NCBI GenBank assembly: GCA_002789955.1 | Contig: PFUG01000212.1 | Span: 357 to 64,356, forward strand | Origin: Deltaproteobacteria bacterium CG_4_9_14_3_um_filter_63_12 | GTDB taxonomy: Bacteria > Myxococcota_A > Bradymonadia > UBA4248 > UM-FILTER-63-12 | Direction of reading: 5' to 3' | Length of the DNA stretch: 64,000 nucleotides | In this document: positions 38,937 through 61,622 of the stretch, piece after piece | Position numbering within the stretch: the first letter of the stretch is position 1 | Layout: each line of letters starts with the position of its first letter | Position numbers and translations under genes: made by a program | Notes under the pieces: generated by a model | Told to the model about the DNA's origin: nothing | What the model saw: only the letters and a program-made list of their open reading frames with translations | Databases searched by the model: none

Positions 38937-40685
38937 ATGACCGTCGAAAATACTTTTTGGGGGCCCGTTCGCCTCGTACTGGCCGCACTGGTCGCGCTGA
39001 CGTTCCCCGCTCAGGCGTGGGGGCAGGACTTCGACTTCAGCGAAGGAGGCGAAGGCGGCGGGGGCGACATGGACTTCAGCGACGGCGGCGACGGCGGCGA
39101 CAGTGGCGGCGGTGACATGGACTTTGGCGGCGAAACGCAGCCGCTGGTTCAGTACACGGTCGACGAGACGTCCCCGACGTTCAAGACCATGAGCGAGGCC
39201 GACAGCTACAGCAAACAGAACCAGAACTACCAGGCGAGTCTGCTTTATTATCAGGTGCTTCAGGCCACTGATGACACGGCAAAGGCGCTGCGCAGCCGAA
39301 CTCACTATGAGCTTGGTCGCACCCTGTTCCAGCTCGGGCTCTACCAGTCGGCGTTGACGCAGTTCGACAAGATTCTCCAGGAGGGGCCTGCCAGCGAATT
39401 TTTCATGCCGACTCTCCAGTGGTTGGTTTTGATCGCCCGCGAGCTTCCGGGAGACCCGGCGAAGGCGTCCCGCATCTACGACAACTACCTGAACATGTTC
39501 CCCGATCAGATCGAGCCATCATTGCTGGCTGAGGTGGGGTTGCTCATGGGGCAGGCCGCCTACTCGAATGGGTTGCTCAACGACGCCATCTTCTTCCTCG
39601 GGCATGTGGACGAGAACAGTGAACTCTACCCGAAAGCTCGCTTCATCGAGGGCGTAACCTTTGTCCGTCAGTATGATGGCAAGCAAGCCGTCGAAAGCTT
39701 CAAGCACATCCTTCGCTGGGTCAAAGCGCAGCCGAACCCGACCCCAGACAACCTGCGCATGGAGGAGAAAGCGATCGCGTCTTTGGGGCGCGTCTTCTAC
39801 CAGGTCGGACACAACCTCTGGGTGGACGGGGAACGGCCCAAGGCCGTGAGCAGCTGGAACACCGCCATCAAGTACTACGCGCTATTCGACCAATCGAGTG
39901 AGATCTGGCTCGATTCCCTTTTTGAGGCGAGTTGGACGTACTATCGCGTTGACAACTTCAACAAGTCGCTGGGTCTCCTCCACACGTTGAACAGCCCGTT
40001 CTTTAACGACGAGTACTATCCCGAGGCGATGCTGTTGCAGGCGCAGATCTACTTCACGAACTGCCACTACGACCGCGTCATGTACATCCTCGAAGAGTTC
40101 AAGGAGCTCTATCCGCCGCTGAAAGAGCGGCTGGAGAGCCAGCTGACCAATCTGATCCAGCCGGAAGATGTGTTCAAGTTCCTGTTGGAGCTCAGGGAGG
40201 GGACGGGCGAGTTCGATCCGACGACCAAGCAGGTGGTGAACGCCGCTCTTCAGGACCGTGAGCTGAGTCGGATGCTTGCTTATATCGATATGTTGGACGC
40301 GGAGATCGCGCAGATCAAGAACGCTGAGAAGGGATGGTCCAGCCATCCTTTGGCGAAGTCCTTGATTCAGGATATCGAGTTTACGAGGGAGTTCGCGTCA
40401 GCGACCGCAGGCAACATGGCCAAGTCGAGGCTGGAGCGTGTCGTCGACGAGCTGAGCGACCTGATCAACAAGAGCCTGGACATCGAGATCGAGACGACTG
40501 AGAAGTTCGCGGGAATGGCCGAGCAGTTGGGAGCCGATCCGGCGAGTCGCCAGGAGTTCGAGAAAGAAATCAACCAGATGATGGCGGCGGACGACGAGCA
40601 TCTGTTTTGGACCTTTGGGGGCGAATATTGGCGAGATGAGCTCGGGTACTACTGGTACTATTTGACGTCTCGTTGTGGGCGCTGA
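38937..40685 (+). CDS. Secreted TPR-repeat protein with N-terminal acidic (D/G/F) repeat
   Basis: Signal peptide LVLAALVALTFPAQAWG. The DFDFSEGGEGGGGDMDFSDGGDGGDSGGGDMDFGGE repeat is followed by TPR-like helices. Confidence 0.8.
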   Translation: MTVENTFWGPVRLVLAALVALTFPAQAWGQDFDFSEGGEGGGGDMDFSDGGDGGDSGGGDMDFGGETQPLVQYTVDETSPTFKTMSEADSYSKQNQNYQASLLYYQVLQATDDTAKALRSRTHYELGRTLFQLGLYQSALTQFDKILQEGPASEFFMPTLQWLVLIARELPGDPAKASRIYDNYLNMFPDQIEPSLLAEVGLLMGQAAYSNGLLNDAIFFLGHVDENSELYPKARFIEGVTFVRQYDGKQAVESFKHILRWVKAQPNPTPDNLRMEEKAIASLGRVFYQVGHNLWVDGERPKAVSSWNTAIKYYALFDQSSEIWLDSLFEASWTYYRVDNFNKSLGLLHTLNSPFFNDEYYPEAMLLQAQIYFTNCHYDRVMYILEEFKELYPPLKERLESQLTNLIQPEDVFKFLLELREGTGEFDPTTKQVVNAALQDRELSRMLAYIDMLDAEIAQIKNAEKGWSSHPLAKSLIQDIEFTREFASATAGNMAKSRLERVVDELSDLINKSLDIEIETTEKFAGMAEQLGADPASRQEFEKEINQMMAADDEHLFWTFGGEYWRDELGYYWYYLTSRCGR

Positions 40686-40723
40686 ACGACGGCATGCAAG
40701 AAGAGAAATCTGGAGTGAGTTCT

Positions 40724-43700
40724 ATGTTTAAGTCAGGTCAGCTGTCCCTCGCATCGCTGAGGGGTGTTTGGGTTATTCTCGCCGTGCTCGCGCTCTACCC
40801 GGTTGCGGGTTGGTCTCAGGGGAACCCCTTCGACGGCGAGGACGCCCAGAAGGAAGAGGCTGCAGTCGAGCAGTTCGAGCGCAAGAAGGTCGAGCGCCCC
40901 GACATCAGCGAGGAAGAAGGCAAAGGCCCGAAGCTCGAACGTGAGTCGAACATCAAAGGGTGGGAGCGCTCCAAGCTGCAATATCAAGACAAGGCCATCC
41001 GCTTGATGGAAGAGCGTGTCGAGAAGGCAGATGAAGACGACCCTGACTATCCCCTCTACCTCGAACGTCTCTCGGAGATGTACTGGCAGAAGGCGCGGTT
41101 CCACGACCTCAGGGCGTTCGACCGTTTGACGGAGTCTCGCGAAGCCGAGGACGCAGGCAATGCCTCGAAAGCCGCCGAGCTGGTGCGAGGCCAAGAGGAA
41201 GACGAGAAGACCGCTCAGGAGTATCGCGAGAAGACCATCGCGACGTACGCCCGCATCATCAAGGAGTTTCCGCTTTACGACAACTCCGACAAGGTGCTCT
41301 TCTACCTCGCCTTCAACCTCGGCGAAATGGGCCGGGCCGAGGATGCCAATGGATTCTACAAAGACCTGGTTCGCGACTACCCGAACACGGACTATCTGGC
41401 TGAGGCCTACCTCGGACTGGCCGAGTATTCCTACCTCTACGACGACATAGACCTTTCGCTCTCCCAGTATGAGTCGGCCATTGCGGCGGCTCCCGACTCC
41501 CAGACCGCTGGTTACGCGATGTACAAGATGGGCTGGTGCTATTTCAACCGCGGCGAGCCGAAGAAAGCCCTGGCTCAGTTCGAGTCCGTCGTGGCCTACA
41601 GTGAGTCGCATACCGGGCGCATCGAGCTGCGCAAGGAGGCCGTAAAGGACCTCGTCAAGGCGTACAGCCTGTGGACCGAGGCGAGCCCGAAGAAGGCCAA
41701 GGGTTACCTCGGCAAGTTTTCCAGCGGGGATGAGGAGCTGCGAGAGATGCTCGAGCGCCTGGCGCGGCTCTATCAAGAGGATGGCGAGGTCGACAAGTCG
41801 ATTTTCGTCTACAACGAGCTGATCAAAGACAACTCGACCAACTTTCGGATCGTCGGCTACCAAACCGAGATCATGCTCAACGTCGAGACCAAGAACGTCC
41901 CAGACCAGACCGCTGAGGAGGTTATCCGCACAGTGCGGCTGTTCAATGCAGCGCGAGAGCAGAAGCTCGAGGGCGCAACAGAAGAGGCGGTCAAGGAAGC
42001 GTACGCACTCCTGGAGGAGTACACGCGTGAGACCGCCAAGTGGTACCACCTGACCGCTCAAACGACGAAAAATCCCCTGTACTACGCGCTCTCGTACGAG
42101 ATCTACAAGGCCTACGTGGACAACTTCCCGGAGGCTCAAGACAACTACGAGATGATGTATTACTACGGCGAATTGCTCTACTGGAAGAAGAACTACGCCG
42201 AGGCGGCCAAGCGCTACGACCAAGTCTTGGCCATTGATGCCGCGGGGAAATTCAGCCGCGACGCCGCCTACGGTGCGGTGTTGTCGTACAACAAGGTCTC
42301 AGAGACTCCGACCGCGGAGTGCCCGCCGATTCCAGTGGTTCCGGAGCCGAAGAAGGGGGAAGAGCCGACTTTCCCCGAGCTCACGATCGCAGACTGCCGG
42401 GTGAAGCTCATCGCGGCGTGTGGACGTTATGCCGAGGTCGTGCCGGACGGTGAACACATCGTCGACATCAAGTACACCGCAGCTCGGATCTACTACGACC
42501 ACAATCAGTTCGGGCCCGCGGTAAAGGCCTTCGAGGACATCGCGATGAACCATTCGGAGAACCGTTTGGGCATCATCTCCGCGAACCTTCTGCTCGACTC
42601 ATTGGGCATCGAAAAGGACTACAAGCAGATGTGGGAGTGGGTCCTGAAGTTCCGCGCCAACGAGCAACTCAATCGGCCGCCACTCGACGACATCCTTGAG
42701 ACACTGGAAACCGAGCTCGCTTTCAAGTTCTGCATCGACAAAGAGACCGAGAAGCTGTGGAAAGAGTCCGCGATGTGTTTCGAGGAATACGCAGGAAAGT
42801 ACGCGACCGCCTCCTACGCACCCAAGGCTTTGTGGAATGCGAGCGTCGATTGGGAGAACGCCTCTGAAGTCGGTAAGGCCATCGAGACCCGCATCCGCCT
42901 CCTTAAAGAGCACGGCGACGACGACTACCTCGCCCCGAAGGCGCTCTACGCGATCGGCCAGAACTTCCACGGCATCGCGGTGTATTCGGAGGCAGCTCGG
43001 TTCTACGAGATGTTTGTCGACAAATACCCCAAGAACGACACCGCCTGCGCACCGGACGGTGAGTCCTCGGAGAATGTCTGCTCCATGTCCGCGCTGCAGA
43101 ACGCCGCGGCGTTCAGAGGCGGCTTGGGTCAATACGAGAAGGCCGTCGAAGACTACGACCGATATATCGTGATGTTCCCCAATGACAAGGCGCAGATCTC
43201 GCTGCTCAAGTTCAACACCGGTCGAATCTATTTTGACCAAGGGCTCTACGAAAAAGCCATCGAGCGCTACAACGAGTATCTGAGCCGTTACGCGAAACTG
43301 GGACCAGAGGGACGAAAGGTCGCCGCGATGACCGCCATCGGTCGCTGCTACTGGAAAAACAAAGATCGTCACGCCGGACTGAAGTCCTTCGAGAAAGCCG
43401 AGAAACTCTACGACAGCAAGCCCTTCCAGAAGTGGTTGGCTGGCGCGGATCCCGAAGCGGTCAAAGAGGCAAACGACGCCGCAGCGGAGGCTCGGTTCAT
43501 GCGCGGCGAAGGGATCTTCTTCGAGGCGCTGGCCATCCGCCTCTCGGACGAGACCATCGAGAGCGCGACGAAGTCTGGCAATTTTCTGAAGAGGCAGCTG
43601 ACAAAGAAGGCCGCGCTGATGCAAGAAGCCAAGCCCATCTACGTCGAGGTCATCACCAGGTTCAACAACCCCAAGTGGGGTCTTGCGGCGATGTGTCGCC

Positions 43701-44140
43701 TCGGGATGATGTATCACGACGTGGCCGACCAGATTCAGAACGCTCCAATCCCAAAGGAGCTCGACGAAGACCAGTCGCTCATCTACGAGGATCTGCTGTT
43801 GGAGTTCGCCGACCGTTTCGAGACCGAGGCGATCGGGTACTACATCACGGCAGTAGAGAAGGCCGCCGACTTGGGCTGGTTCAGCACCTACACGACGTTG
43901 GCGCAGAGGCGACTCTTCGACCTGCGGCCAGAAGAGTACCGGTCGGCTTCCGAGATCAAGGCGCAGCCGGACCGAGCCTCCGTCACCTGGCACAAGTCCA
44001 AGCTCTATGTGGATGTTGAAGCTGCAGCAGGTCGCAAGGCCAAGAAGAAGCGCGGCGCAATCGATCTCCAATCCAACGAGATGGAGAAGGTCAAGGGCGA
44101 AGGGGACGTTGACCCAGAGGGTGTCAAAGCCCCTGAGTGA
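40724..44140 (+). CDS. Periplasmic TPR-repeat protein, 1138 aa (AgmU/GltD-like by size, TPR content and position)
   Basis: Signal peptide MFKSGQLSLASLRGVWVILAVLALYPVAGWSQG. TPR repeats throughout. GGAG RBS. The ORF track starts at an upstream TTG at 40673. Confidence 0.8.
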   Translation: MFKSGQLSLASLRGVWVILAVLALYPVAGWSQGNPFDGEDAQKEEAAVEQFERKKVERPDISEEEGKGPKLERESNIKGWERSKLQYQDKAIRLMEERVEKADEDDPDYPLYLERLSEMYWQKARFHDLRAFDRLTESREAEDAGNASKAAELVRGQEEDEKTAQEYREKTIATYARIIKEFPLYDNSDKVLFYLAFNLGEMGRAEDANGFYKDLVRDYPNTDYLAEAYLGLAEYSYLYDDIDLSLSQYESAIAAAPDSQTAGYAMYKMGWCYFNRGEPKKALAQFESVVAYSESHTGRIELRKEAVKDLVKAYSLWTEASPKKAKGYLGKFSSGDEELREMLERLARLYQEDGEVDKSIFVYNELIKDNSTNFRIVGYQTEIMLNVETKNVPDQTAEEVIRTVRLFNAAREQKLEGATEEAVKEAYALLEEYTRETAKWYHLTAQTTKNPLYYALSYEIYKAYVDNFPEAQDNYEMMYYYGELLYWKKNYAEAAKRYDQVLAIDAAGKFSRDAAYGAVLSYNKVSETPTAECPPIPVVPEPKKGEEPTFPELTIADCRVKLIAACGRYAEVVPDGEHIVDIKYTAARIYYDHNQFGPAVKAFEDIAMNHSENRLGIISANLLLDSLGIEKDYKQMWEWVLKFRANEQLNRPPLDDILETLETELAFKFCIDKETEKLWKESAMCFEEYAGKYATASYAPKALWNASVDWENASEVGKAIETRIRLLKEHGDDDYLAPKALYAIGQNFHGIAVYSEAARFYEMFVDKYPKNDTACAPDGESSENVCSMSALQNAAAFRGGLGQYEKAVEDYDRYIVMFPNDKAQISLLKFNTGRIYFDQGLYEKAIERYNEYLSRYAKLGPEGRKVAAMTAIGRCYWKNKDRHAGLKSFEKAEKLYDSKPFQKWLAGADPEAVKEANDAAAEARFMRGEGIFFEALAIRLSDETIESATKSGNFLKRQLTKKAALMQEAKPIYVEVITRFNNPKWGLAAMCRLGMMYHDVADQIQNAPIPKELDEDQSLIYEDLLLEFADRFETEAIGYYITAVEKAADLGWFSTYTTLAQRRLFDLRPEEYRSASEIKAQPDRASVTWHKSKLYVDVEAAAGRKAKKKRGAIDLQSNEMEKVKGEGDVDPEGVKAPE

Positions 44141-44207
44141 GCGCGAACCGGTGTCGCAATCCAACGGGCTCGACGGGCTATGCCCGAGATTTGAAAGAGG
44201 TAATGAA

Positions 44208-45737
44208 ATGAGTGTCGTGCGCCTCCCCTTCATCCTGATAGTGCTCTCCATGCTGGCCATAGCATGCGGCCCGCCCAGTGGGCCGGAAAATCCCCTCGAC
44301 AAAGACGGGGGCAAAGAGTCCCAGCAACTCGTCCGCGAGGAAGCACTGAAGAAGTTCGAAGAGGGCATCGCCATCTTTCGTACGAACCCCGTGAAGGCAA
44401 AACAGCTCTTCGAGGAAGCCGTCGATGAGGATGAGACCTTTGGCGAAGCTTGGTACAACCTGGCGCTCGTCCAAGAGTCGGCGGGCGATATCCCGGGTGC
44501 AATCACCTCCTACGAGAACGCGATCAAGTCGCGCCCAGACATGGCTGAGCCCAACGTCAACCTCGGCGTCATTCTCCTGCAGAAAGGAGAGCGCGAGAAG
44601 GCGAAAGAGCTCTTCATGAAGGTCGTCAACGAGACCAATGGGATCGATCCTTTCAACGTCGAGGCAAACCTCGACCTGGGCATGATCTATCGGCTCGAGG
44701 GCGAGGAGATCGTCGCCAAAGACAACATCGGCAAAGACTTATCGACCCAAATCAACGAAGGCGAGGTCGTCGAGCGTGACATCGTCGTCAGCGACGAGGC
44801 CAAGGTGCGTTTCGCCGAAGCCGTGAAGAACGTTCGCCGAGCCCTCGCCGGTGACTCGAACAACATCACGAGCTACGAGAACCTCGCTGCGATCTATTAC
44901 GATCTCGACAGCCTCGAGGTCGCAACGTTGGTGTGCCAACAGGCTATTCAGAAGGAGATCGACCGCAATGCGGAGCTCGAGGCGCAGCTGGCGGCGAAGC
45001 AGATCACGCAGGCTGAGTTCAACGAGCACGAGATCACTGCCGTACAAATGAGCGCGGTCTACAACACGTTCGGGCTGGTTTGGATGGCTCGCGGTGAGGT
45101 CGCTCTGGCCTACGCGAACTTCAAGACCGCAATGGAGCTCGACCCTGTGTCCACAGAGGCGTTGTTCAACGTCGCTGGAATCGCCGTCAACGTGCAAGAT
45201 TACGCGATGGCCTACCAAACCTACGGTGATATTCTCAAGACCGAGCCCAACAACCGTGAGGCACGCTTGAGCCAAGCCGTTGCCGCACGTGGTTTGGACA
45301 ACCTCGCCGAGGCCGAGCAGGTCTACGATGCGCTGCTCAAGGACGACCCGACCTATTCCCCCGCGACCTTCAACAAGGCGGTTCTGTATCAGGAGTACCA
45401 CCGTGACTTGGTCAAGGCGAAAAGCATTTACGAGGAGTTCATCGCCATGCCGGCCGCAGCCAAGCAAGCCCCTGCATACGTCGCCGAAGCGCAACGCCGG
45501 GTGAAGCAGATCGAGGACATTTGGGAAGCGCAGAAGAAGGCAGAGGAAGAGCAGAAGAAGATCGAGAAAGAGATGAAAGAGCTCGAGGAGCTCCAGAAGC
45601 AGCGGGACAAGGAATACGAAGACGCGGAGAAAGCAGAGAAGGCGGCGGCAGAGGCCGCTGCGGGAGGAGGCGCTGCGAACGGCGAAACCCCTCCCGCTGA
45701 CGGAGAGAAAACACCGGAGACGCCCGCCACACCTTGA
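44208..45737 (+). CDS. TPR-repeat lipoprotein, 509 aa (AglT/GltE-like) with K/E-rich coiled-coil tail
   Basis: Lipobox LSMLAIAC. TPR repeats. C-terminal EEQKKIEKEMKELEELQKQRDKEYEDAEKAEK. AGAGG RBS. Confidence 0.85.
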   Translation: MSVVRLPFILIVLSMLAIACGPPSGPENPLDKDGGKESQQLVREEALKKFEEGIAIFRTNPVKAKQLFEEAVDEDETFGEAWYNLALVQESAGDIPGAITSYENAIKSRPDMAEPNVNLGVILLQKGEREKAKELFMKVVNETNGIDPFNVEANLDLGMIYRLEGEEIVAKDNIGKDLSTQINEGEVVERDIVVSDEAKVRFAEAVKNVRRALAGDSNNITSYENLAAIYYDLDSLEVATLVCQQAIQKEIDRNAELEAQLAAKQITQAEFNEHEITAVQMSAVYNTFGLVWMARGEVALAYANFKTAMELDPVSTEALFNVAGIAVNVQDYAMAYQTYGDILKTEPNNREARLSQAVAARGLDNLAEAEQVYDALLKDDPTYSPATFNKAVLYQEYHRDLVKAKSIYEEFIAMPAAAKQAPAYVAEAQRRVKQIEDIWEAQKKAEEEQKKIEKEMKELEELQKQRDKEYEDAEKAEKAAAEAAAGGGAANGETPPADGEKTPETPATP

Positions 45738-45756
45738 TCGGAGAGGGACGAGTGTC

Positions 45757-45805
45757 AGAGACGCCCTCGCGCTGCAGCAGCACGAGGGCGTTTTGCGTCT
45801 CTCGG
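45757..45805 (+). terminator. Intrinsic terminator (9-bp GC stem ACGCCCTCG/CGAGGGCGT followed by TTTT)
   Basis: GAGACGCCCTCGCGCTGCAGCAGCACGAGGGCGTTTTGCGTCTC, also with outer complementary arms. Confidence 0.5.
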
Positions 45806-45909
45806 TTTCATTCCACTAGTCGGTCGACAGAACTTGGATTATGATGGCCGACGAAGTGAAATCCACTGAGGGTCGCATTCGGCGCGGCCTTGTAGGGAGA
45901 GGTTCTGGA

Positions 45910-46155
45910 ATGAGTACGATCTTCAAGGGTATCGTTGCCATCACATTGACCCTGTCTCTCGGCGGTGTGGCTTGGGCGCAGGACGCTGGCGCCAAAGTGA
46001 AGGAGATCAACTTCGAAGACGACACAATCGAAGGCGAACTCCAGATGCCAAATCAGACGAACATCCGAGGCGATGATATGGGCGACCTGTCGAGCCTAAT
46101 CAAGGCGAGAGAGGACTTTGTCGATGAGATGTTGAAATCCGTCGAAGACCTCTGA
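45910..46155 (+). CDS. Small secreted protein, 81 aa (PglI/GltF-like by size and position)
   Basis: Signal peptide MSTIFKGIVAITLTLSLGGVAWA. Acidic mature peptide. GAGAGG RBS. Confidence 0.55.
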   Translation: MSTIFKGIVAITLTLSLGGVAWAQDAGAKVKEINFEDDTIEGELQMPNQTNIRGDDMGDLSSLIKAREDFVDEMLKSVEDL

Positions 46156-48557: not shown

Positions 48558-48600
48558 GCCGGGAATCGACATTGGGCGATTCCCGGCCCTGTCGTTTGCT
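48558..48600 (+). terminator. Intrinsic terminator-like hairpin (11-bp stem GCCGGGAATCG/CGATTCCCGGC) with T-rich tail
   Basis: Read directly from the sequence, 55 bp after the FHA/TonB gene stop. Confidence 0.5.
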
Positions 48601-48779: not shown

Positions 48780-49841
48780 ATGCGAGCCATTTCTGTGTCG
48801 TTGATCGCATCGATCCTCATCGCGTTCACAGCGGTTTTCAGCGCGTGTGACACATCCTACGTGGATTCGACGGACCACATGAACGAAGGGATCAAGCTCT
48901 ATTCGGCTGGACAGATTTCCAAAGCGCTTGACGAGCTCAAGAAAGCGATCGAGATCTACCCCGAAAACCACAAAGCGCACTACCAGATGGGCATGATCTA
49001 CAACAGCCCACGTGTCAGCGATTTCGTGAAAGCGGCGGAGGCTTTCAAACGCGCGACCGAGATCAGCAAGGATAACGGCGAATATTGGTACTATCTCGGG
49101 GCGGCGAATCACAACGAAGGCAACAAGCTGGTCGCGGATAAACGAGGCAGCGACGCCGTGAAGTTCTTCGAGGCTGGCCGAGACGCGTTTATCCAAGCGG
49201 TCTCTGCCGATGAGTACTACGCGGAGGCCTATTATCGGTTGGCTCAGATCTACCGGGAGTTGGGGGACATTTCCAAGGCCATTGACGCCTATTCGAACTC
49301 GATCAATTCGGATCCGACGCTGACGAACGAGCAGGGCACCGCCATTGGTTACCTCGAGCTCGGGATGCTGTATCTGGAGTACTCGTTCTTGGACGAGGCG
49401 CTCCAGGTCCTGCGCAACGGTGTCGCCAACAACCCTGACGACGTTCAGCTGCAGGCGCAACTGGGCAACGTGTACCTCGCACAAGATCGATTCGAAGAGG
49501 CCAATCATCACTTCGAGAAGTCGTATGAGACCCAGCAGCGATTGGGGGGGCCGAACGAGCACATTCTCCCGGCCCTATACGGCCTTGGGCTCTCCTATGC
49601 GTCTCTTGGGGACGCAGCGATGCTCAAGTCGGACATCGGTGGTGCGATGAAGCAGTACGAAGAGTCGAGCAAATGGTTCGACACGTTCATCGCCAACGCT
49701 TCGGGCGACTCCCTTCAGGCCCAGCGGATCGCGGCAACCGGCAAGGTGACCGAGGTCAAAGAGATGATGAAGGAGCTCAAGGAAGGCAAGCTTCCGCAGT
49801 TCATCATCGATCGCCAGAAGATGGAATCGGCGCCCAAGTAG
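48780..49841 (+). CDS. TPR-repeat lipoprotein (353 aa)
   Basis: Lipobox AVFSAC. TPR repeats (AHYQMGMIY, EYWYYLGAA, AYYRLAQIY). AGGAGA RBS. Confidence 0.8.
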   Translation: MRAISVSLIASILIAFTAVFSACDTSYVDSTDHMNEGIKLYSAGQISKALDELKKAIEIYPENHKAHYQMGMIYNSPRVSDFVKAAEAFKRATEISKDNGEYWYYLGAANHNEGNKLVADKRGSDAVKFFEAGRDAFIQAVSADEYYAEAYYRLAQIYRELGDISKAIDAYSNSINSDPTLTNEQGTAIGYLELGMLYLEYSFLDEALQVLRNGVANNPDDVQLQAQLGNVYLAQDRFEEANHHFEKSYETQQRLGGPNEHILPALYGLGLSYASLGDAAMLKSDIGGAMKQYEESSKWFDTFIANASGDSLQAQRIAATGKVTEVKEMMKELKEGKLPQFIIDRQKMESAPK

Positions 49842-53300: not shown

Positions 53301-56300
53301 CTCGCCGAGTACGACGAGGCCATCGGCTGCTATCGCCGGATCATGGAAACGGACATTGAGAACGAGGCAGCGCAAGAAGCCTTGGAGACCCTTCTCGGCG
53401 AAGGGATCGAGGCTGGGCGAGTCGCTACGATTCTCGAGCCCGTCTACGCGTTCCAAGCGGACTTCGACGCGCTGGTCAAGGTGCTCTCGATCCAGTTGGA
53501 GCATAACACCGTCAAGGACCAGCAGATCGTCTTGTGGACCCGAGTCGCGGGCTTGCAGCGCGATGAACTCGGCGATCAAGAATCGGCCTTCGAAGCGTAT
53601 GGGAAGGCTCTCGAGCTCTTACCCGCCGACGACGAGGTCTTCGGCCAGCTTTCGAGCGTCGCTGCGGGCTTGGACGACATTCCGCGACTGGCAGCGAAGT
53701 TGGAGAGCATCACAGAGTCTATCGAGGACGAGCGGCTCCGCACGTCGTATGAGTTGCGGCTCGCTGGGATCTACGAGACCAGCCTCGACGACATCGAACG
53801 CTCGAGGGACTTTGCCCGCTCCGCTCTGCAGCGTGGTGGGAAGGACCCGGCGGTTCTGGAGTCCCTCGAAGCTCTACACACACGCACCGAGTCTTGGGAC
53901 GATTTGCTCGCGGTTTTGTCGAAGCAGAAGGGCCGAGTGGCAGAGGAGCCTGAACGGGTGCTCGCCCTCAACCTTCGGATTGCCTCGGTCAAAGAGGAGC
54001 TGCTTCAGGATCCGGAAGGCGCCATCGAGGTGTACCTCGAGGTCCTGAACGCCGATGGCGCCAACGAGCAGGCGCTGGCAGCCCTCGACCGGCTCTACGC
54101 CGACCTCGAGCGCTGGGACGAGGCCGCTTCGAACTTGGGCCGAAGACTCGAGCTCCAAGAAACCGAAGCGGGGCGCGACGCGGTGCATTGCCAACTCGCG
54201 AAGGTCCTGGATCGCCACCTCGGTGAGTCGGAGCGAGCGATTGAGATCTACACCGAGGTCTTGGGACGCGACTCACAGAACGCGACGGCGATCTTGGATC
54301 TCGAGGCGATGCTCGAGACGGCAGATCCCATCCCCGCCGAGTCGATCATGGAGCTGCTGCTGCCGCTCTACGACGCGGCTGGAGACTGGAGGAAGCGCGC
54401 CTGGGTCAATGAGAAGATGCTGCGGGTCGTCGACGATACACAGCGCCGGGTCGCGCTGTTGGCGGAGATCGCCAACCTGCACGAGAGCCAAGGGCAGGAG
54501 TACGAAGAGGCCTTTATCGCCTACTCTCGTGCGCACACGGAAGACCCGACCGACGAGAACACTCTCGAGCAGCTCCGCCGTTATGCGGAGGCGTTGGACG
54601 TCTGGCGCGAGTTGGTGGAGGTGATGCAGACCGCAGCAGAAACCATCGCCGATGGCACTCAGGCTAAAGAAGCGCAGATTCGCATCGCTTCGATCTACCG
54701 CGACAATCTCGCCGATCTTGAAGGCGCGACGACAGCTTACGAGCGTGCCAGCGAGTACGACCCAGAGGACACCAGCATTCTCGATTCGCTCGAGACGATC
54801 TACCGAGAGCGTTCCGCCTGGGAACCCCTCACCGCGGTTCTCGCCAAGAAGGCAGTGCGCTGCGAAGATCTCACGGAGAAGAAGGAGTACCTCTTCCAGG
54901 CTGCCATTCTCTGTGAAGAGATGCTCGAGCGGATGGACCGTGCCACCGAGATGTACCAAGAGGTCTTGAGCCTCGATTCCGAGGATCGGACCGCCATCGA
55001 CAGCCTCGAGCGACTCTATCTGAGCACCGAGCGCTGGAACGACTTGATGTCGATCTACAACATCAAGATCGAAGCGGCGCAGACGCCCGAGCAACAGCTC
55101 GAGCTCTACTACATCGTTGGGGCCTTGCAGGAGCGCGAGCTCGACGACAACTACGGTGCCATCGAGACCTACCGCAAGGTTTTGGACATCAACTCTGACG
55201 ACCCCCACGGTCTCGAGGCGCTTGACCGGCTGTATACGCTGGTCGAGGACTGGATGAATCTCCTCGAGATCCTGGAGCGAGAAGAGGCGACGGCCAGCGA
55301 TCCAGATGCCAAGCTCGAGCTGCGCTTCCGCCAAGGCGACGTGTGGAGACTCAATCTCAACGAGTCGCTGCGCGCGATCGAGGTGTACCGCAGTGTTCTC
55401 GAGGTGCACTCGGCGCATGAGGCGAGCATCGCCGCTCTCGAAGCGGTCATCGCCAGCGGAGAGAACGGGGTCGATGCCGCGAAGGTGCTCGAGCCAGTCT
55501 ACAAATCGGCGGCTGAGTGGGAGAAGTTGGTCGCGGTCTATGAGGTGATGTTCGAGCAGTCCGAGGACGAGCAAGGCCGAATCGAGCTGTTGAGCACGAT
55601 CGCCATGATTCGTGAGGACATGCAGGGCGATGCTGCGGCTGCATTCGACGTCTGGATTCGGGCGCTCCACCAAGATCCTCGAGACGCGACGGCTTGGGAG
55701 ACCTTGCAGCGCATCGCCGCTGTGATGGACCTCTGGGACACTCTCGTTTCGAAGGGAGGAGAGATCCTCGCCAAGACCGAGGAGAGCGATGCGGCAAGCA
55801 TCGTCGCCAGTCACTTGGCCCGTATCTACGAGGAGAATATTGGCTCGCCGACCGACGCCATCTCGATGTGGGGCCGTGTACTCGAGGTCGAGCCCGCGGA
55901 GCCCACGGCGATCGCCGCTCTCGATGGTCTCTACGAAAGGCAAGCCATGTGGCCCCAGCTGGCCGAGACACTGTCCCGAGAGATCGAGCTGGCCACCCGC
56001 GAGGAGGACATTCTCAGATTCCGTCTGCGCCTGGGGACCCTTTACGAGAACTTCTTGGAGGACCTGAGCGAAGCGATCAGTTGCTACAACGAGATGCTGA
56101 TGCTGCAGGCCGGAAACGCGGATGCCGTCGCCTCTTTGGAGCGCATGTTCGCAGCCGGTCAAGAACAGCTCGCCGTTGGTGGGATCTTGGAGCCGTTCTA
56201 CCGAGACACCGAGCAATGGGACAACTTGGTCGGGATCGCGTTGGCCCTATTGGAGCATTTTGAGACCGCCACGGAGCGCTATCAGAAGCTCCTGGACATC

Positions 56301-59300
56301 GCTGAGATCTACCTCGGACCGCTATCGAACGCAGCCAATGCCCTCTTCGTCTATGGTCGTGCTCTCGTCGAACGCCCAGGGGACGAATTCGCTCTCACTC
56401 GCTTGAGCGAATTGGCGGAAATCACACAGTCTTGGGAGGAGGCAGTGGACTTCCTCGCCGCCGCTTTGGACGCGTCCGAAGAGCCGACGGTCCAAAGGGA
56501 ACTGTTGTGGCGCATGGCGACAGCCTACAACGACGAGATCGGCAACTTCGAGCAAGCAGAGCACGCCTATTTGCGAGTCTTCGAGGTCGACCCCGAAGCG
56601 CTCGACGCCATGCAGGCCCTCGATAAGCTCTACCTCGAGCAGTCCCGGTGGGACGATCTGGTCAACGTCTTGCGTCACGAGATCGCCCTTTCTCAAGGCG
56701 ATCACGAGAAGATCGAGCTCTACCTGCGGTTGGGTCAGATCTATGAGGACATGATCCAGAACTCAGCCGCTGCGGTGCAATCTTTCCGCCTGGCCCTCGA
56801 GCTCGAGCCCTCACAATCGGAGGCGCTCGCTGCCCTCGAACGAATCCACATGCAAAGTGAGGAGTGGGAGCTCCTCTACGCCGTCTACAGTCAGCAATCG
56901 ACCATCGCCGACAGCGAAGAGGTGCGTTCGGAGATCTGGGCCAAGATGGCCAACCTCGCCGCCGAGGTCCTCGACCGCCGCAACGACGCCATCGAGCTCT
57001 GGTTCCAAGTGCTCGACGCCCGAGGGGCAGATCTCAACGCCCTCCAGAACCTCGAGCGGCTCTTCGAGTACGATAAGCGCTGGCCTGACATGACCGACGT
57101 CATCGAGCGCCAGGTGCCATTGGTTCAGACTGCCGAAGCGCAGCTGGAGCTCTTCCGCAAGCTCGGCAGAATTTGGAGCGGGCCTCTCGAGAACGAGGAG
57201 AGAGCCCTCGAGTATTGGCGTCGCGCCATGGACGTCCACCAAGAGGACCTCGAGACCCTCTGCGCCATCAAGCAGATCGATGAGAACCTCGGCGACTATG
57301 AAGACCTGGTGGACATCATTCGCCGCATCGTCGCGCTCGGCGTTTTGGAGCACGAGGTTCAGCTCGCCCATTACGTGCAGCTCGGCGAGATCTTGAGCCA
57401 GGTCCTCATTCGCTCGCAGGAGGCGATCGACACTTGGATTCAGGTCCTCCAGCTCAATCCCGCCCACCTCCAGGCGCTGGTCGCGTTGGAGCAACTCTAT
57501 GTCGACGAAGCTCGATGGGAGGAGGCTGTCGACGTCCTCGACCGCAAGGCGGACGTCGTCGAAGACTCGAACGAGGCGCTCAACATTCGCATGCAGATCG
57601 CCGAAATCTGGGAGAACCAGGTTGGCAATGCCGAGCTCGCAGCGGCGGCCTACGACAACGTCCTGGATATGGATCCAGCCAACAACGACGCGTTCCTCCG
57701 CCTCGAGACTTTGCACACCAACGGTGAGAACTGGCAACAGCTGCTTGGCCTCTACGTCACACGCGCCGAGGTGATCGAGGAGCCGAAGACCCGCCTCGAG
57801 GTGCTGCGGCGGGCCGCCAGCATCGCCGAAGAGCGCCTCGACCAACCCGAGATGGCCTTTGTCGTGCTGCAGACGGCGCTGGCCGATCACTGGCGCGATT
57901 CGACCATCGCCAATGAGCTCGAGCGGCTCGCTGACGTGACGCGAAACTGGCGAGAGCTGGTCGGGATCTACGAGCAGATCATCGAGACGGTGAAGGACCC
58001 TTCCGAAGCCCTCGAGCTCCACAACAACGTCGCCCGTTGGTACTTCCACAAGCTCAACGACAACGAGAAGTCCTGGCAACACTTCCAGTTCGTGCTCTCG
58101 CTCGACCCCAACAACCTCAACGCGCTTGCGGCTCTCTCGAAGATCTACGAGCGGCTGGGCAGCTGGCAAGAGCTGGTCAACGTCCTGGTTCGTCGCGCCG
58201 AGTTGACCCAAGAGGTCGAAGACAAGATCGAGCTCTACACGCAGATCGCCGTCGTCTGGGAGGACAACCTCTCAAACGAAGCGCAAGCCATCGAGGCGTT
58301 CCGACAGGTTCTCGCGCTCGATGAAGGCAACCTCAACGCCTTGCGTCAGCTCGAGCGCATCTTCCAAGGAACTCAACAGTGGGAGGAGCTCGTCGACGTG
58401 CTGGAGACACTCTGCCAGGTCGTCTACGAACCTGCGGACGTCGTCAAGATGCGCTATCGCGTCGGCGAGATCTGGGAGACCTGCCTCGAGGTCGACCAGA
58501 AGGCGATCGATTCTTACCGGCAAGTCCTCACCATCGAGGAGACCCATGCGCCCGCTCTCGATGCGCTGGAGCGACTCTTCACGCGACTCCAGCAGTGGGC
58601 GGACCTCATCGGTGTCTACGAGGCGCAGCTGACCTCTGCGGAGTCTGGCGACGAGCAGATCGCGCTCTACCTCAAGATGGCAACCGTCTATGAGGAAGAG
58701 TTCGGTGACGTCGAGAACTCGATCGCCTGCATGCAGCGCATCACGATGGTCGATCCGGCGAACTTAATGGCCATCCAGACCCTCGAGCGTCTCTATCGCG
58801 ACAACGGACGCTGGCCGGACCTGATCGACGCACTCACGACCCACATTAGCATCGTCTACGACCGAAAGGAGCAGATCGAGCTGTACCGACAGCTGGGTGA
58901 GGTCTTCCGAGACCATCTCCAAGATGTCTACCGGGCCATCGAGAGCTTCCGGAATATCCTCGAAATCGACCCCAATCATTCGCTCGCCTTGGGGGCGTTG
59001 GCCGACCTCTACTACAACAGCGCCGACTGGCAGACCTGCATCGAGACCCTCAACCGCCTCGTCGCGGTCACCTTCGAAGTCGCTGACGGCGTCGAGCTCC
59101 AATATCGGATCGGTAAGATCTTCGAGGAGCATCTGGCGGAGTACGACCAGGCAGAAGAGCGCTTCCAGATCGCCCTCGATCTCGACGGCTCGTTCATGCC
59201 CGCCATCGATGCCCTGCAGCAACTCTACGAACGCCGCGAGGACTTCATCGGCGTGATCCGGATCCTGAAGCAGAAGGTCGAGCACACGGTCGACCTCGAG

Positions 59301-61622
59301 GAGAAGGCCGATCTTCTCTGCCTGATCGGACAGATCTACGACCTGCGAATGAACGACGCGATCAACGCCGTCGACTACTACGAGAAGACCCTGCAGCTCA
59401 GCCCCTCGAACATCTACGCCGCACGCCCGTTGGCGGAAAAGTTCATCCGGGAGCAGCGCTGGGCACGCGCCGAGACGTTGCTCGAGACCCTGATCCACAA
59501 GATCGGCTACAGTCGCGACGTCGAGGATCTCTACATGCTCCACTACTGGCTCGGCTTGGCCAGCCAGGAGTTGGGACAGCAAGAGAAGTCGCTCACCCAC
59601 TTCCGTGAGTCCTACGAGCTCAACCAGGCCTATCTCCCCACCCTGCTCGGGTTGGGGCGGCAGCTCTACAACTGCCATGACTATGAGCGTGCGTACAAGA
59701 TGTTCCAGACCATCCTGGTTCAGTACGCCGAGGAACTCTCTGGCGAGCAGCTGATCCAGGTCTACTTCGACTCCGCGCAGATCAAGCACGCGACCGGAGA
59801 CATGGTTCAGTCTCAGCACCTCTTCGAGAAGGTCTTGGAGATCGATCCAACCCACGAGAAGACTCTGGGCGCCATGATCGAGCTCTGCGAAGACGCAGAG
59901 AACTGGGAGTACGTCGTCTACTACAAACGAGCGAGGCTCTCGGTCGCCGGTGACGTCGCCGAGAAGTTCGCCGAGCTCGCCGAGATGGCGGAGATCTACC
60001 AACGTCAAATGGGAGACCTCGAGAAGGCCATCTCGTGCTTCCGTGAGGCGATGGAGATCGAGCCCGACTCCAAGTTCGTGATGCTGAAGCTCCTCGACAT
60101 CTACACGAACTCGAAACAGTGGACAGAGGCCATCACCCTCCTCGACCGGCTCTGCGAGCTCGAGTCCGGGCCAGAGCGCTTGGCCAAGTTCAACTACACC
60201 ATCGGCGTCATCTACCGAGACGAGTTGAACCAGGACCTGCAAGCCGTCACCTACTTCAACCGTACGTTGGACGCGAACATCAACGAGCTCAAGGCCTTCG
60301 AGGCCATCGACCGCATCCTCACTGCCATGAAGGATTGGCGAGAGCTCGAGCGCAACTACCGCAAGATGATCAAGCGTGTCTACGACCTCGACGAAGGCCA
60401 GTTCGACGACACCAAGTTCCTGCTCTGGTACGGCTTGGCCGAGATCTATCGCACCCGGCTCACCGAGTGGGACAGCGCCATCAGCGCCTTCCAACAGGCC
60501 AGCTCACTGCGGCCCAAGGATCCCAGAATGCACCGCATCCTGGCCGATCTCTTCGTGCGCAGTGGAGACCAAGACGATGCCGCCATCGGGGAGTTCAAAA
60601 CCCTGATCAACATGCCACCGGATCCCAGTGACCCCTACGCACGTGGCGGCAATCTGCACGAGCGAAACGCAGAGTTCTACCACTCGCTTTTCAAGCTCTA
60701 CCTCAAGACCAAGCGCTACGATGAGGCTTGGTGCATCTGCAACGTGATGTGCTACCTGCGCATCGCCACCGACGAGGAGAAGCAGTTCAACGAGCGCTAC
60801 CTCGGGCCATCCCTGGTCCAGGCTCAAGGTCGCCTGACGCCCGATACGTGGAAGATGGTCTACCATCCCGACGAGAATCTGCGCATTGGCAACGTTCTCA
60901 ACGTGATCCAGGCCTACTGCCGCGATCTCTTCGCCTACGACCTGAAGAAGACGTGGTCCCTCAAGAAGAAGGACGAGCTCGATCAGAACGCGGACTTCCT
61001 CTTCTGCAAGATGTACCGCTACCTCGCCCAGGTCATCGGCGTCGTTCCGGCCCCGAAGCTCTTCCTGAAACGCGACCAGGCCCTCGGCATGATCAACGGC
61101 AACATCGATCCACCTGGCTTCATCGTCGGGGCGGACATGATGCAGGGACGTGGGCAGCGCGAGCTGGGCTTCATCATCGCTCGCCAGTTGGCTCTGGCCA
61201 CACCCATCCACTACTTGGGCGGACTGCGCCTGCCAACCGAGAACCTCAGGTTCCTGGTTATGGGCGCGATCCAGGCCGCCACCAACGCGGCGACCGCGGA
61301 TAGCAATCTCGATGCGGTCATCAAAGCGATTCACAAGATGCCACCCCCTGTGAAGGTGGACTTGGGCAAGATCCTCAAGCCCATCATCGAAGGGACGGTC
61401 GAAGTGAATATGTCGCGCTGGCTCAAGGCCATCGACAACACCTCGAACCGCGTTGGGCTCCTGCTCTGCGGCGATGTCGAGGTCGCCATGAGTGCCATCA
61501 AGAACGACCCAACTCCGATCTCGAAGCTCACCATCCCCGAGAAGGAGGCTGAGCTGCTCCAATTCGCGATCAGTGAAGAGTTCTTCCAAGTGCGAGCACG
61601 GCTCGGACTCTCCATCGCCTGA
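50319..61622 (+). CDS. Giant cytoplasmic TPR-repeat protein, 3767 aa (AgmK/GltI-like)
   Basis: Uninterrupted 11,304-bp ORF with uniform GC3 bias. N-terminal about 100-aa polyacidic disordered region, then about 90 TPR-like helical hairpins (recurrent AW..LG.LY, A..Y..VL..DP.N). AGAGG RBS. No signal peptide or TM. Confidence 0.9.
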   Translation: MSDHHETDSTPTPDAENPEESALVGAVLDAEDAAEALDEHAGDELEGSGEAAASEEASPADGEAPDADGDIDVDEQEPSEDAADEAEPSDEVVEVSWEDKAEALIAGAAAASSPEESLSKYVAAILLADQNAPGDGRIAETWGDALQRIPGLARELWARLSGRVTSEVDVWEQISIAHQVNSTDADGDEALAISEAWGWVQVLRSGEVEAGKARLQAFAEGDANGYSAAILEAVISAESGNWRKVESEIKDRLAATGLDGEPLAAEVALRLADVSMGQAARDRAVEVLRRAQRSDPEHSSLRNRLTVLYRDTAKWNAYVDLLKEAVARTPDPEEQVSIYFEMIRIYTDQMHLEAMAVKAYESLLLIEPTNERAIGALAAAYESSRRWPDLVSLLRGQADAAKSAARRVALNYRIAVVYLDNLSRQVDAIKAFEMVLEDSPYHEETIAHLKDLYGRRREWEKLIDVHKAEISRLADPFEQAERLKEVAEIADKLRQPSITALIWSEVLERSPKDEAALSALEGLYEREKDWPKLADICERKATLEEDPAEQLKLWTKLGGLYGSSIRDSEGAIRAWRAVLMLEPGHTKASDSLRKLLIDTKKWDDLETFYAEQDAGAELVRVLETLANTSKEDADVVELRFRAARVWRDDLGNPDRAVASLEKVFETDAANARAAAELAPHYESIADHAKLVAMLEIQHAAEDGLERRVELALKIATLNEKSLNDLAASYRWLASVIEQKPDHDAAYDAFERVGIQLDKAADVVKRYRDASSKVETEVERQELTFRMGIILANQLGKVDAALAMFESILEQEPDNLKALGALERILEQTGRFDELIQVNERRLGLATTPAEEAEILLSGARIHEQQRGDKVTAIESYERVRELAPKNQAALIELHRLYKERGDWEAMANAIRARLALMAEAAPRPTKRVEHRSPVQLDEDGHLDAPAGADLDEDADGNVFVVRVEEVIDETAEPQLEASVAIPLWMELGSVVQHELAEYDEAIGCYRRIMETDIENEAAQEALETLLGEGIEAGRVATILEPVYAFQADFDALVKVLSIQLEHNTVKDQQIVLWTRVAGLQRDELGDQESAFEAYGKALELLPADDEVFGQLSSVAAGLDDIPRLAAKLESITESIEDERLRTSYELRLAGIYETSLDDIERSRDFARSALQRGGKDPAVLESLEALHTRTESWDDLLAVLSKQKGRVAEEPERVLALNLRIASVKEELLQDPEGAIEVYLEVLNADGANEQALAALDRLYADLERWDEAASNLGRRLELQETEAGRDAVHCQLAKVLDRHLGESERAIEIYTEVLGRDSQNATAILDLEAMLETADPIPAESIMELLLPLYDAAGDWRKRAWVNEKMLRVVDDTQRRVALLAEIANLHESQGQEYEEAFIAYSRAHTEDPTDENTLEQLRRYAEALDVWRELVEVMQTAAETIADGTQAKEAQIRIASIYRDNLADLEGATTAYERASEYDPEDTSILDSLETIYRERSAWEPLTAVLAKKAVRCEDLTEKKEYLFQAAILCEEMLERMDRATEMYQEVLSLDSEDRTAIDSLERLYLSTERWNDLMSIYNIKIEAAQTPEQQLELYYIVGALQERELDDNYGAIETYRKVLDINSDDPHGLEALDRLYTLVEDWMNLLEILEREEATASDPDAKLELRFRQGDVWRLNLNESLRAIEVYRSVLEVHSAHEASIAALEAVIASGENGVDAAKVLEPVYKSAAEWEKLVAVYEVMFEQSEDEQGRIELLSTIAMIREDMQGDAAAAFDVWIRALHQDPRDATAWETLQRIAAVMDLWDTLVSKGGEILAKTEESDAASIVASHLARIYEENIGSPTDAISMWGRVLEVEPAEPTAIAALDGLYERQAMWPQLAETLSREIELATREEDILRFRLRLGTLYENFLEDLSEAISCYNEMLMLQAGNADAVASLERMFAAGQEQLAVGGILEPFYRDTEQWDNLVGIALALLEHFETATERYQKLLDIAEIYLGPLSNAANALFVYGRALVERPGDEFALTRLSELAEITQSWEEAVDFLAAALDASEEPTVQRELLWRMATAYNDEIGNFEQAEHAYLRVFEVDPEALDAMQALDKLYLEQSRWDDLVNVLRHEIALSQGDHEKIELYLRLGQIYEDMIQNSAAAVQSFRLALELEPSQSEALAALERIHMQSEEWELLYAVYSQQSTIADSEEVRSEIWAKMANLAAEVLDRRNDAIELWFQVLDARGADLNALQNLERLFEYDKRWPDMTDVIERQVPLVQTAEAQLELFRKLGRIWSGPLENEERALEYWRRAMDVHQEDLETLCAIKQIDENLGDYEDLVDIIRRIVALGVLEHEVQLAHYVQLGEILSQVLIRSQEAIDTWIQVLQLNPAHLQALVALEQLYVDEARWEEAVDVLDRKADVVEDSNEALNIRMQIAEIWENQVGNAELAAAAYDNVLDMDPANNDAFLRLETLHTNGENWQQLLGLYVTRAEVIEEPKTRLEVLRRAASIAEERLDQPEMAFVVLQTALADHWRDSTIANELERLADVTRNWRELVGIYEQIIETVKDPSEALELHNNVARWYFHKLNDNEKSWQHFQFVLSLDPNNLNALAALSKIYERLGSWQELVNVLVRRAELTQEVEDKIELYTQIAVVWEDNLSNEAQAIEAFRQVLALDEGNLNALRQLERIFQGTQQWEELVDVLETLCQVVYEPADVVKMRYRVGEIWETCLEVDQKAIDSYRQVLTIEETHAPALDALERLFTRLQQWADLIGVYEAQLTSAESGDEQIALYLKMATVYEEEFGDVENSIACMQRITMVDPANLMAIQTLERLYRDNGRWPDLIDALTTHISIVYDRKEQIELYRQLGEVFRDHLQDVYRAIESFRNILEIDPNHSLALGALADLYYNSADWQTCIETLNRLVAVTFEVADGVELQYRIGKIFEEHLAEYDQAEERFQIALDLDGSFMPAIDALQQLYERREDFIGVIRILKQKVEHTVDLEEKADLLCLIGQIYDLRMNDAINAVDYYEKTLQLSPSNIYAARPLAEKFIREQRWARAETLLETLIHKIGYSRDVEDLYMLHYWLGLASQELGQQEKSLTHFRESYELNQAYLPTLLGLGRQLYNCHDYERAYKMFQTILVQYAEELSGEQLIQVYFDSAQIKHATGDMVQSQHLFEKVLEIDPTHEKTLGAMIELCEDAENWEYVVYYKRARLSVAGDVAEKFAELAEMAEIYQRQMGDLEKAISCFREAMEIEPDSKFVMLKLLDIYTNSKQWTEAITLLDRLCELESGPERLAKFNYTIGVIYRDELNQDLQAVTYFNRTLDANINELKAFEAIDRILTAMKDWRELERNYRKMIKRVYDLDEGQFDDTKFLLWYGLAEIYRTRLTEWDSAISAFQQASSLRPKDPRMHRILADLFVRSGDQDDAAIGEFKTLINMPPDPSDPYARGGNLHERNAEFYHSLFKLYLKTKRYDEAWCICNVMCYLRIATDEEKQFNERYLGPSLVQAQGRLTPDTWKMVYHPDENLRIGNVLNVIQAYCRDLFAYDLKKTWSLKKKDELDQNADFLFCKMYRYLAQVIGVVPAPKLFLKRDQALGMINGNIDPPGFIVGADMMQGRGQRELGFIIARQLALATPIHYLGGLRLPTENLRFLVMGAIQAATNAATADSNLDAVIKAIHKMPPPVKVDLGKILKPIIEGTVEVNMSRWLKAIDNTSNRVGLLLCGDVEVAMSAIKNDPTPISKLTIPEKEAELLQFAISEEFFQVRARLGLSIA

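Follow-up and report, generated by a model that had tools for sequence, protein, structure and literature searches.

Seven co-directional genes at positions 38937–61622 of a 64,000-nucleotide stretch of Deltaproteobacteria bacterium CG_4_9_14_3_um_filter_63_12 (Bradymonadia; contig PFUG01000212.1; the whole stretch is called the window below) are best explained as encoding the periplasmic, inner-membrane and cytoplasmic parts of a Glt-type (Agl-Glt/Nfs) envelope-spanning force-transmission complex, most likely for surface gliding of the bacterial focal-adhesion type, and this explanation as a whole is considered probable. Its parts are held with different confidence: membership of the Glt family of machines is very likely, power from a TolQR-like motor is likely by analogy, and gliding is a cautious best guess for the output, again by analogy. 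To our knowledge, experimental dissection of the Agl-Glt machine is limited to Myxococcus xanthus. There, cluster G1 has the order gltD-E-F-G-H-..-I-J and gltC lies in a separate cluster, G2; homologues of gltC, D, E, F, G and I were found here in the same relative order.

The seven open reading frames (ORFs) on which the original prediction had based its comparison with the M. xanthus G1 gliding module were confirmed on the + strand with encoded proteins of 582, 1138, 509, 81/104, 724, 353 and 3767 amino acids (aa). The GltG-like protein is identical on 11 metagenome contigs, and third-party gene calls on 3 contigs with this identical protein gave the same sizes (582, 1138, 509, 81 or 104, 724, 353 and 3767 aa). 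Along the + strand, gltC-gltD-gltE-gltF-gltG are followed by the gene of a TPR lipoprotein, here called x, and by a gltI-like giant. The features of the region are as follows.

38786–38814, + strand: promoter-like site (TTGACA-17-TAGCAT), about 120 nucleotides 5' of gltC, 10 of 12 consensus matches
38937–40685, + strand: gltC homologue for a secreted TPR protein of the periplasm, 582 aa, whose N-terminus is acidic and D/G/F-rich (NCBIfam gliding_GltC)
40724–44140, + strand: gltD homologue, periplasmic TPR 'pillar' of 1138 aa (colinear BLASTP match; the ORF opens at TTG 40673)
44208–45737, + strand: gltE homologue, TPR lipoprotein of 509 aa, lipobox LAIAC (NCBIfam gliding_GltE)
45910–46155, + strand: gltF (cglF) homologue coding for a small secreted protein, 81 aa long or, with the ATG at 45841 as start, 104 aa (NCBIfam gliding_CglF)
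46329–48503, + strand: gltG homologue, bitopic inner-membrane protein of 724 aa (NCBIfam gliding_GltG, Pfam FHA)
48558–48587, + strand: strong hairpin of 11 base pairs, 8 of them G-C, directly after gltG (terminator-like scan)
48780–49841, + strand: x, TPR lipoprotein of 353 aa (homologues at the same slot in 40 related loci)
50319–61622, + strand: gltI-like giant, cytoplasmic protein of 3767 aa (repeats, profile match, position)
60636–61622, + strand: C-terminal domain of the giant, with a predicted M48 (BepA/HtpX/Ste24)-like fold lacking HExxH (AlphaFold2 model, alignment)

Identity of the seven genes

A locus from a Myxococcaceae metagenome-assembled genome (MAG), L072, was above the NCBIfam equivalog cut-offs for GltE (519 bits), GltG (765 bits), CglE/GltH (171 bits) and CglF/GltF (120.7 bits, for the protein at the gltF position) and was therefore taken as a true G1 cluster and used as the reference. 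Related loci were collected by searching one genome per species for GltG and keeping the best 80 of 535 stretches, and synteny was scored by tblastn of the window proteins against these loci.

Within the cluster, Pfam returned generic TPR families for genes 1, 2, 3, 6 and 7, and FHA together with a weak TonB_C match for gene 5. Signal peptides were found in the products of genes 1, 2 and 4, lipoboxes in those of genes 3 and 6, and a transmembrane helix in that of gene 5. The product of gene 1, left unnamed in the original prediction, matched the NCBIfam model gliding_GltC (E 1.4e-92, 311 bits, equivalog cut-off 450) over model positions 117–619 of 622, and homologues hold the same position in 49 related loci; judged by sequence, this first gene is gltC. 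In M. xanthus gltC belongs to G2, so the locus combines G1 with a part of G2.

Gene 3 matched gliding_GltE (E 1.5e-26, 93 bits, cut-off 225) and was aligned by BLASTP with GltE of the reference locus at 22.7% identity over residues 83–496 (E 5e-19); its slot directly after gltD is conserved in relatives. The small product of gene 4 matched gliding_CglF in the C-terminal half (E 5.8e-14, 52 bits, cut-off 90). Gene 5 matched gliding_GltG (E 4e-108, 363 bits, cut-off 650), its FHA domain was recognized by Pfam (E 2.9e-18), and its tail exceeded the cut-off of 40 for myxo_SS_tail, the C-terminal domain of AgmX/PglI, with 111.6 bits. Against GltG of the reference locus it aligned in two colinear pieces, with 44% identity in the FHA domain and 27% in the remainder. 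The likeness of these three proteins to AglT/GltE, GltF and AgmV/GltG, proposed before on size and architecture, is thus borne out by family-specific matches, each below its equivalog cut-off. An AlphaFold2 model of the GltG homologue (12-sequence alignment) contained confident FHA (residues 1–100), all-beta (250–380) and alpha/beta C-terminal (615–722) domains joined by disordered linkers, with the transmembrane helix (394–422) directly behind the second all-beta domain. The periplasmic linker is disordered and acidic/Gly-rich, and residues 615–722 form the TonB_C-like AgmX/PglI tail; this layout is the one published for M. xanthus GltG (PMC11761067).

For genes 2, 6 and 7, NCBIfam gave generic TPR matches only. 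GltD of the reference locus, a bona fide member, has the same generic YbgF/BamD matches, and its GltI matches only generic TPR models; there is thus no GltD or GltI model in the library, and the generic matches of genes 2 and 7 are uninformative. Direct comparison was more specific. Gene 2 was aligned by BLASTP with the reference GltD (1211 aa) in a single colinear high-scoring segment pair (HSP) covering residues 3–1073 of 1138 against 15–1123, or 94% of the protein, at 26.7% identity (E 1e-93). The original prediction had called this protein AgmU/GltD-like and had named generic TPR similarity without colinear alignment as the outcome that would speak against its proposal; for GltD the alignment was found to be colinear. 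The N-terminus of the GltD homologue (40724–40830) is a plain signal peptide without a Cys and without a lipobox. M. xanthus GltD, in contrast, is numbered from 'Cys1' (PMC11761067), which implies a lipoprotein, so that membrane anchoring, as read from the sequence, may differ between the two.

The giant has no signal peptide and no transmembrane segment and consists of an acidic N-terminus, a repeat array and a non-TPR C-terminal domain. Whole-length self-BLAST returned the identity match only, and chunked BLAST exposed a period of 72 aa with self-similarity offsets of 72, 144, 216, 288, 360 and so on. The array comprises about 43 units of 72 aa, each of two TPR-like hairpins, and runs nearly uninterrupted from residue ~280 to ~3420 (window 51156–60578). 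The best HSP with GltI of the reference locus joined residues 999–2729 to 720–2480 (E 6e-71); the 72-aa repeats caused many further, off-register HSPs. A profile made from 29 window-type giants (N-terminal 900 aa of each) matched the reference GltI with 559 bits (E 1e-170) and GltI of a second Myxococcota MAG locus, L076, with 430 bits, and gave no match to GltD or GltE of the same organism as the matched GltI. The repeat type is therefore GltI-specific rather than generic TPR, in agreement with the AgmK/GltI likeness proposed at the outset. The giant's position after gltG is conserved in relatives, and its length of 3767 aa is close to that of M. xanthus GltI, MXAN_4863 (3822 aa; PMC11761067), both being cytoplasmic TPR proteins. 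On repeat type, cytoplasmic location, near-identical length and conserved position it is accepted as GltI-like and, from its sequence, as a putative GltI.

The last 328 residues of the giant (3440–3767) are non-TPR and matched no Pfam family. An exhaustive search found this domain in 1920 representative clusters; in all 150 matches listed it lies at the extreme C-terminus, the full-length proteins having ~2900–4200 aa. Its AlphaFold2 model had a mean predicted local distance difference test score (pLDDT) of 92.8, and the predicted fold is M48 (BepA/HtpX/Ste24)-like, with the HExxH zinc-binding motif absent from 23 of 23 aligned members. With this fold, its C-terminal placement and no HExxH, the domain is read as a dead M48-derived module that, going by the model, probably serves in binding and not as an enzyme. 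BepA (YfgC) is an M48 peptidase fused to a TPR domain; the giant has the reverse domain order and differs from it in being cytoplasmic, about ten times longer and without the zinc site in all 23 members.

The x lipoprotein has a homologue between gltG and the giant in 40 related loci, among them L004, L035 and L062, and 31 of the 40 carry a lipobox. Most members share the mature N-terminal motif C-(N/D)-x-x-R-x-x-S-I-x-x-M-N-x-G. No real match to x was found in the verified G1 locus L072, and only generic TPR matches were obtained in curated libraries; in Myxococcaceae G1 (M. xanthus) the slot is occupied by the barrel gene gltH. The x lipoprotein is a genuine conserved component of the cluster type seen in the window.

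Promoter-like sites in the whole region did not exceed chance in total, and the site 5' of gltC is suggestive only. The count of terminator-like hairpins was likewise not above chance overall, and the hairpin after gltG has a weak T-tail. It is possible, from the sequence, that this hairpin ends a gltC-G transcription unit; the promoter-like site 5' of gltC and the hairpin 3' of gltG would together fit such a unit, as would the arrangement in a relative (L001) described below.

Related loci and the GltD tree

All seven genes were present in order and on one strand in 39 of the 80 distinct related loci, and gltC-D-E-F-G in 12 more. The taxonomic labels of these loci are Bradymonadia, Polyangia, Kofleriaceae, Nannocystaceae and, once, Myxococcia; C-D-E-F-G-x-I is the common arrangement in Bradymonadia and Polyangia. 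The order D-E-F-G-x-I, emphasized in the original prediction for its agreement with G1, hence recurs widely with gltC in front. Of the different gene complement that had also been pointed out, the contrast with M. xanthus stands (gltC joined, x present, no gltJ), whereas its standing as a peculiarity of this organism does not, the arrangement being common in Bradymonadia and Polyangia.

The nearest GltG relative (65% identity; L003, CAXXSX010000001.1, 1.09 Mb) carries the same seven-gene cluster on a contig labelled 'Victivallales bacterium'. The Glt cluster of L003 and the GltD tree place it beside Bradymonadales, so that the label is probably wrong, as judged from these sequences. A second relative with 59% GltG identity is labelled 'uncultured Myxococcales' (L001/L008, CAYVQF010000005.1), and the next relatives are Bradymonadales, Persicimonas and Microvenator MAGs with 35–41% identity. 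The window's type of cluster is present in a Persicimonas sp. MAG (L010). L001/L008 has an intact gltC-G block with a redoxin gene behind gltG; its x homologue has the inverted orientation and no giant was found within 10 kb, which means that the C-G block is separable from the x and giant genes. In a neighbour-joining tree of GltD, the window protein clusters with those of its two close relatives, and this group is sister to Bradymonadales. Three of the loci (L054, L062 and L070) hold GltG paralogues from one MAG.

A small Cys-rich lipoprotein family (~110–270 aa) was seen at most ~1.5 kb 5' of gltC, on either strand, in 17 loci (L007, L011, L012, L015, L016, L018, L021, L028, L030, L032, L037, L038, L041, L043, L046, L051 and L082). 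A similar family occurs in Kofleriaceae and Polyangia loci; it had no NCBIfam match and was not found in the window. Some Bradymonadales loci have extra genes right after gltG (L007 12366–14215, L018 10198–10821, L037 11550–13055), which encode small lipoproteins (207–309 aa) or a 501-aa protein with similarity to GltG, probably via an AgmX/PglI-type tail. They may represent additions of the PglI or GltJ kind, and the window has none of them.

Surroundings of the cluster

Directly upstream (window 35888–38684) lie genes for three proteins: one coiled-coil protein, one OmpA-family lipoprotein of 378 aa whose N-terminal part is long and helical, and one barrel-like protein of 218 aa with a terminal Phe as in outer-membrane barrels. 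These three had been put forward as possible outer-membrane partners of the cluster, a proposal that was rejected, as they are not kept beside the cluster in relatives: the coiled-coil and barrel-like proteins had no homologue in 82 loci, the OmpA-family lipoprotein matched one gene only (in L071), and none of the three is present in the 65% relative. The 218-aa protein was also discarded as a relative of GltA/B (no NCBIfam match, hhalign probability 0.14%). For the protein at 35888–36547, earlier described as DUF4398-like, no Pfam family was found at E<=0.01.

Downstream, the giant is followed by rsmI (61943–62845) and not by an agmX/gltJ-like gene, as the original prediction had noted. The giant also precedes rsmI in L086, L092 and L093, and this junction is kept among lineages whose C-terminal domains share only 31–68% identity. 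Another sub-lineage has rimM-trmD-rplS-rnhB-yraN 5' of gltC. Embedding of the cluster among housekeeping genes suggests vertical inheritance.

The earlier statement that no AglRQS motor genes lie in the window was upheld by scans of the larger ORFs; the sole multi-transmembrane ORF in the 64 kb encodes a CAAX protease, and nothing was TolQ/ExbB-like. No motor genes were found in the flanks of related loci. Families of motor-like size recurring 5' of gltC, considered as TolQ/TolR candidates, proved to be RimM, TrmD, L19, RNase HII and YraN. Among the genes 3' of the giant in L091–L093 (243/153/154 aa), also candidates by size, RlmH and RsfS accounted for two of the three families; Pfam gave no match for the third (243 aa in L092) and only a weak phosphoribosyltransferase-domain match for its relative in L093. 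The motor genes are unlinked in M. xanthus as well, so that their absence from 64 kb does not exclude a motor.

The window (G+C ~60–63%) otherwise carries housekeeping genes. It also contains four eukaryotic-type Ser/Thr kinases and a PrkA-like AAA kinase (10782–12740, 16911–18467, 18876–20654, 25692–27347 and 33384–36014); such a set is typical of Myxococcota-like genomes and of possible interest given the phospho-threonine-binding FHA domain of GltG.

Proposed function and alternatives

Compared with M. xanthus, the locus has gltC contiguous with gltD-G and lacks gltJ after the giant (rsmI being there instead) as well as linked gltA, gltB and gltK. The Nfs system of M. xanthus sporulation (nfsA-H) is, like the window locus, one contiguous operon with C-D-E-F-G homologues and the same kind of motor; it has the barrel genes A, B and H and no GltI-like giant, the window locus being the reverse, with the giant but without barrels. 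Homologues of GltA-H and the AglRQS motor are common to Nfs and Agl-Glt, and GltI, GltJ and GltK are missing from Nfs (PMC3858216); by this definition (barrel genes, no GltI/J/K) the window locus is not an Nfs cluster. Barrel-C-D-E-F-G(-H-I) clusters of other Myxococcota MAGs, such as L076, have the same C-D-E-F-G core, and L076 also has GltI. These clusters begin with a TIGR04565 (OMP_myx_plus) barrel, L076 also has GltH, and the GltC of such clusters reaches the equivalog cut-off (518 bits); in the GltD tree they group with Myxococcaceae G1, in contrast to the window type, which falls in separate clades. A broader likeness exists to Tol-Pal/TonB, where a long periplasmic linker and a TonB_C-like tail belong to a bitopic inner-membrane protein that is presumably energized by a TolQR/ExbBD-type channel and contacts TPR proteins (the repeats of the GltD homologue are YbgF/CpoB-like). 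The window locus goes beyond Tol-Pal/TonB with numerous additional TPR components and, in the cytoplasm, an FHA domain and a giant scaffold, and it has no TolB, Pal or linked motor.

The proposed mechanism follows M. xanthus genetics and modelling (PMC3169522, PMC3858216, PMC11761067). GltG would sit in the inner membrane and take its energy from AglRQS, a TolQR-like proton channel whose genes would lie elsewhere in the genome; AglR interacts with GltG in M. xanthus (PMC3169522). The disordered periplasmic linker and TonB_C-like tail of GltG would grip or wrap the long TPR pillar GltD, which in turn would bind the lipoprotein GltE and the TPR protein GltC, while small GltF would bridge GltC, GltD and GltG. 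GltC would reach outer-membrane partners not encoded at the locus. In the cytoplasm, the 3767-aa repeat protein would offer many docking sites for the FHA domain of GltG and so cluster several units. The published model predicts several sites in GltI that bind the FHA domain of GltG, and it has GltD as the central pillar and GltF as a bridge between GltC, GltD and GltG (PMC11761067). Apart from the motor, the outer-membrane platform and GltJ, all parts of this mechanism are encoded in the window; the platform genes may lie elsewhere in the genome.

The choice of gliding over an Nfs-like role is favoured by the GltI-like scaffold, which Nfs lacks, together with reports of gliding in Bradymonadales: Persicimonas, Bradymonas and a third compared genus were scored as gliding (PMC7188933). 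The family was defined by Luciano et al. (2011), who reported it, gltI included, from across the Myxococcales and saw gltC grouped with the G1 genes of some genomes; gltF and gltI belong to the Group A genes, restricted to Myxococcales and Bdellovibrionales, with gltI in Myxococcales only (PMC3169522). In the literature that was searched, no paper linking Agl-Glt to Bradymonadia was found.

Several points weigh against gliding or against close kinship with the M. xanthus machine. All curated equivalog scores are below cut-off, and identity to Myxococcaceae proteins is ~23–27% over most of the length (44% in the FHA domain of GltG), which makes the window proteins distant relatives. The verified G1 GltD falls in a different clade, together with clusters that start with a TIGR04565 (GltA/B-like) barrel, so that this tree does not establish a one-to-one relation to the gliding cluster. 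The giant resembles GltI in its repeats and its position, the L072 copy of GltI being truncated. Searches for a Myxococcaceae copy of the giant's C-terminal domain found none, word-indexed searches giving short unnamed fragments only; among the 150 best exhaustive matches none had more than 29% identity to the N-terminal part of Myxococcaceae GltI, and the same held for the metagenome loci. In the window, no MotA_ExbB/ExbD family was detected in the larger ORFs scanned, a scan that leaves out ORFs under ~180 aa, the size of ExbD/TolR. No GltA, GltB, GltH, GltK or CglB outer-membrane platform was found there (no TIGR04565, CglE or other match), nor a GltJ or a second protein with an AgmX/PglI tail. 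In the M. xanthus-type machine, GltJ has a ZnR-GYF-TM-TonB_C-like architecture and connects to MglA and AglZ. The motor, GltA/B/H/K, CglB and GltJ are all essential for gliding of M. xanthus. Surface movement of Bradymonadales has, moreover, been attributed to type IV pili (PMC11509652, PMC7460792), and core Glt genes also occur in non-gliders (Luciano et al., PMC3169522). Remoteness from G1, a GltD clade of its own, several parts not found and the published credit to type IV pili together keep the case for gliding moderate.

A rival reading is a Glt/Nfs-family machine whose output is not locomotion, with the same motor-driven relay used to move or assemble a surface polymer, as Agl-Nfs does with the spore coat, or for another envelope task. 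The family is known to be re-used, Nfs itself being the example (PMC3858216); additional paralogous clusters without a known role exist in M. xanthus (PMC3169522), and the GltG paralogues L054, L062 and L070 imply that one genome may hold several. The position of the window-type GltD apart from verified gliding GltD and the lack of a linked adhesin, outer-membrane platform genes or gltJ point the same way. A GltI-like cytoplasmic scaffold is, however, absent from Nfs (PMC3858216) and present here, and among the GltI-bearing clusters of Bradymonadia and Polyangia this type is the main one; these groups include reported gliders (PMC7188933). An output other than locomotion is therefore regarded as rather unlikely. 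The locus could also represent an ancestral-type core complex with a non-motility envelope role, like the GltC/D/E/G and AglRQS sets of non-gliding Gammaproteobacteria, the giant being an unrelated neighbour. Those core genes were judged insufficient for motility (Luciano et al., PMC3169522), and neither motor nor outer-membrane genes were found in the window. What makes this reading improbable is that gltF and the gltI-like giant, both of Group A (PMC3169522), are present and syntenic here, and that the core clusters outside the deltaproteobacteria have linked motor genes, unlike the window locus.

That the cluster is a chance run of generic TPR genes with a superficial likeness to the Glt module in size and order would fit the generic TPR families returned by Pfam for five of the seven genes. 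It is refuted by the family-specific GltC, GltE, CglF and GltG matches, the colinear GltD alignment and the synteny of 39 loci across several classes, and its probability is negligible.

Taken as a Glt-type complex most likely used for gliding, the locus leaves the principle of the known system unchanged and adds two details that the Myxococcus model does not have: x, and an M48-like pseudopeptidase domain as the C-terminus of the giant. It is put forward tentatively, as a possibility more doubtful than the assignment itself, that loci of the window type (gltC-D-E-F-G, x and a giant with a dead M48-like end) form a distinct, widespread Glt branch in Bradymonadia and Polyangia, with another outer-membrane end and another cytoplasmic regulator than in Myxococcus, and that this branch could be the unrecognized engine of the Bradymonadales 'gliding' now credited to type IV pili. 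Without linked barrels, gltH or gltJ, such a branch would need a different outer-membrane end and regulator. In Bradymonadia and Polyangia (~40 loci), the periplasmic, inner-membrane and cytoplasmic modules are usually encoded in one compact, contiguous unit that includes a GltI-type giant. If Bradymonadia are counted outside Myxococcales, the origin of GltI would be earlier than the 'ancestor of Myxococcales' proposed in 2011. For the predatory, culturable Bradymonadales, the locus offers a concrete candidate for surface motility.

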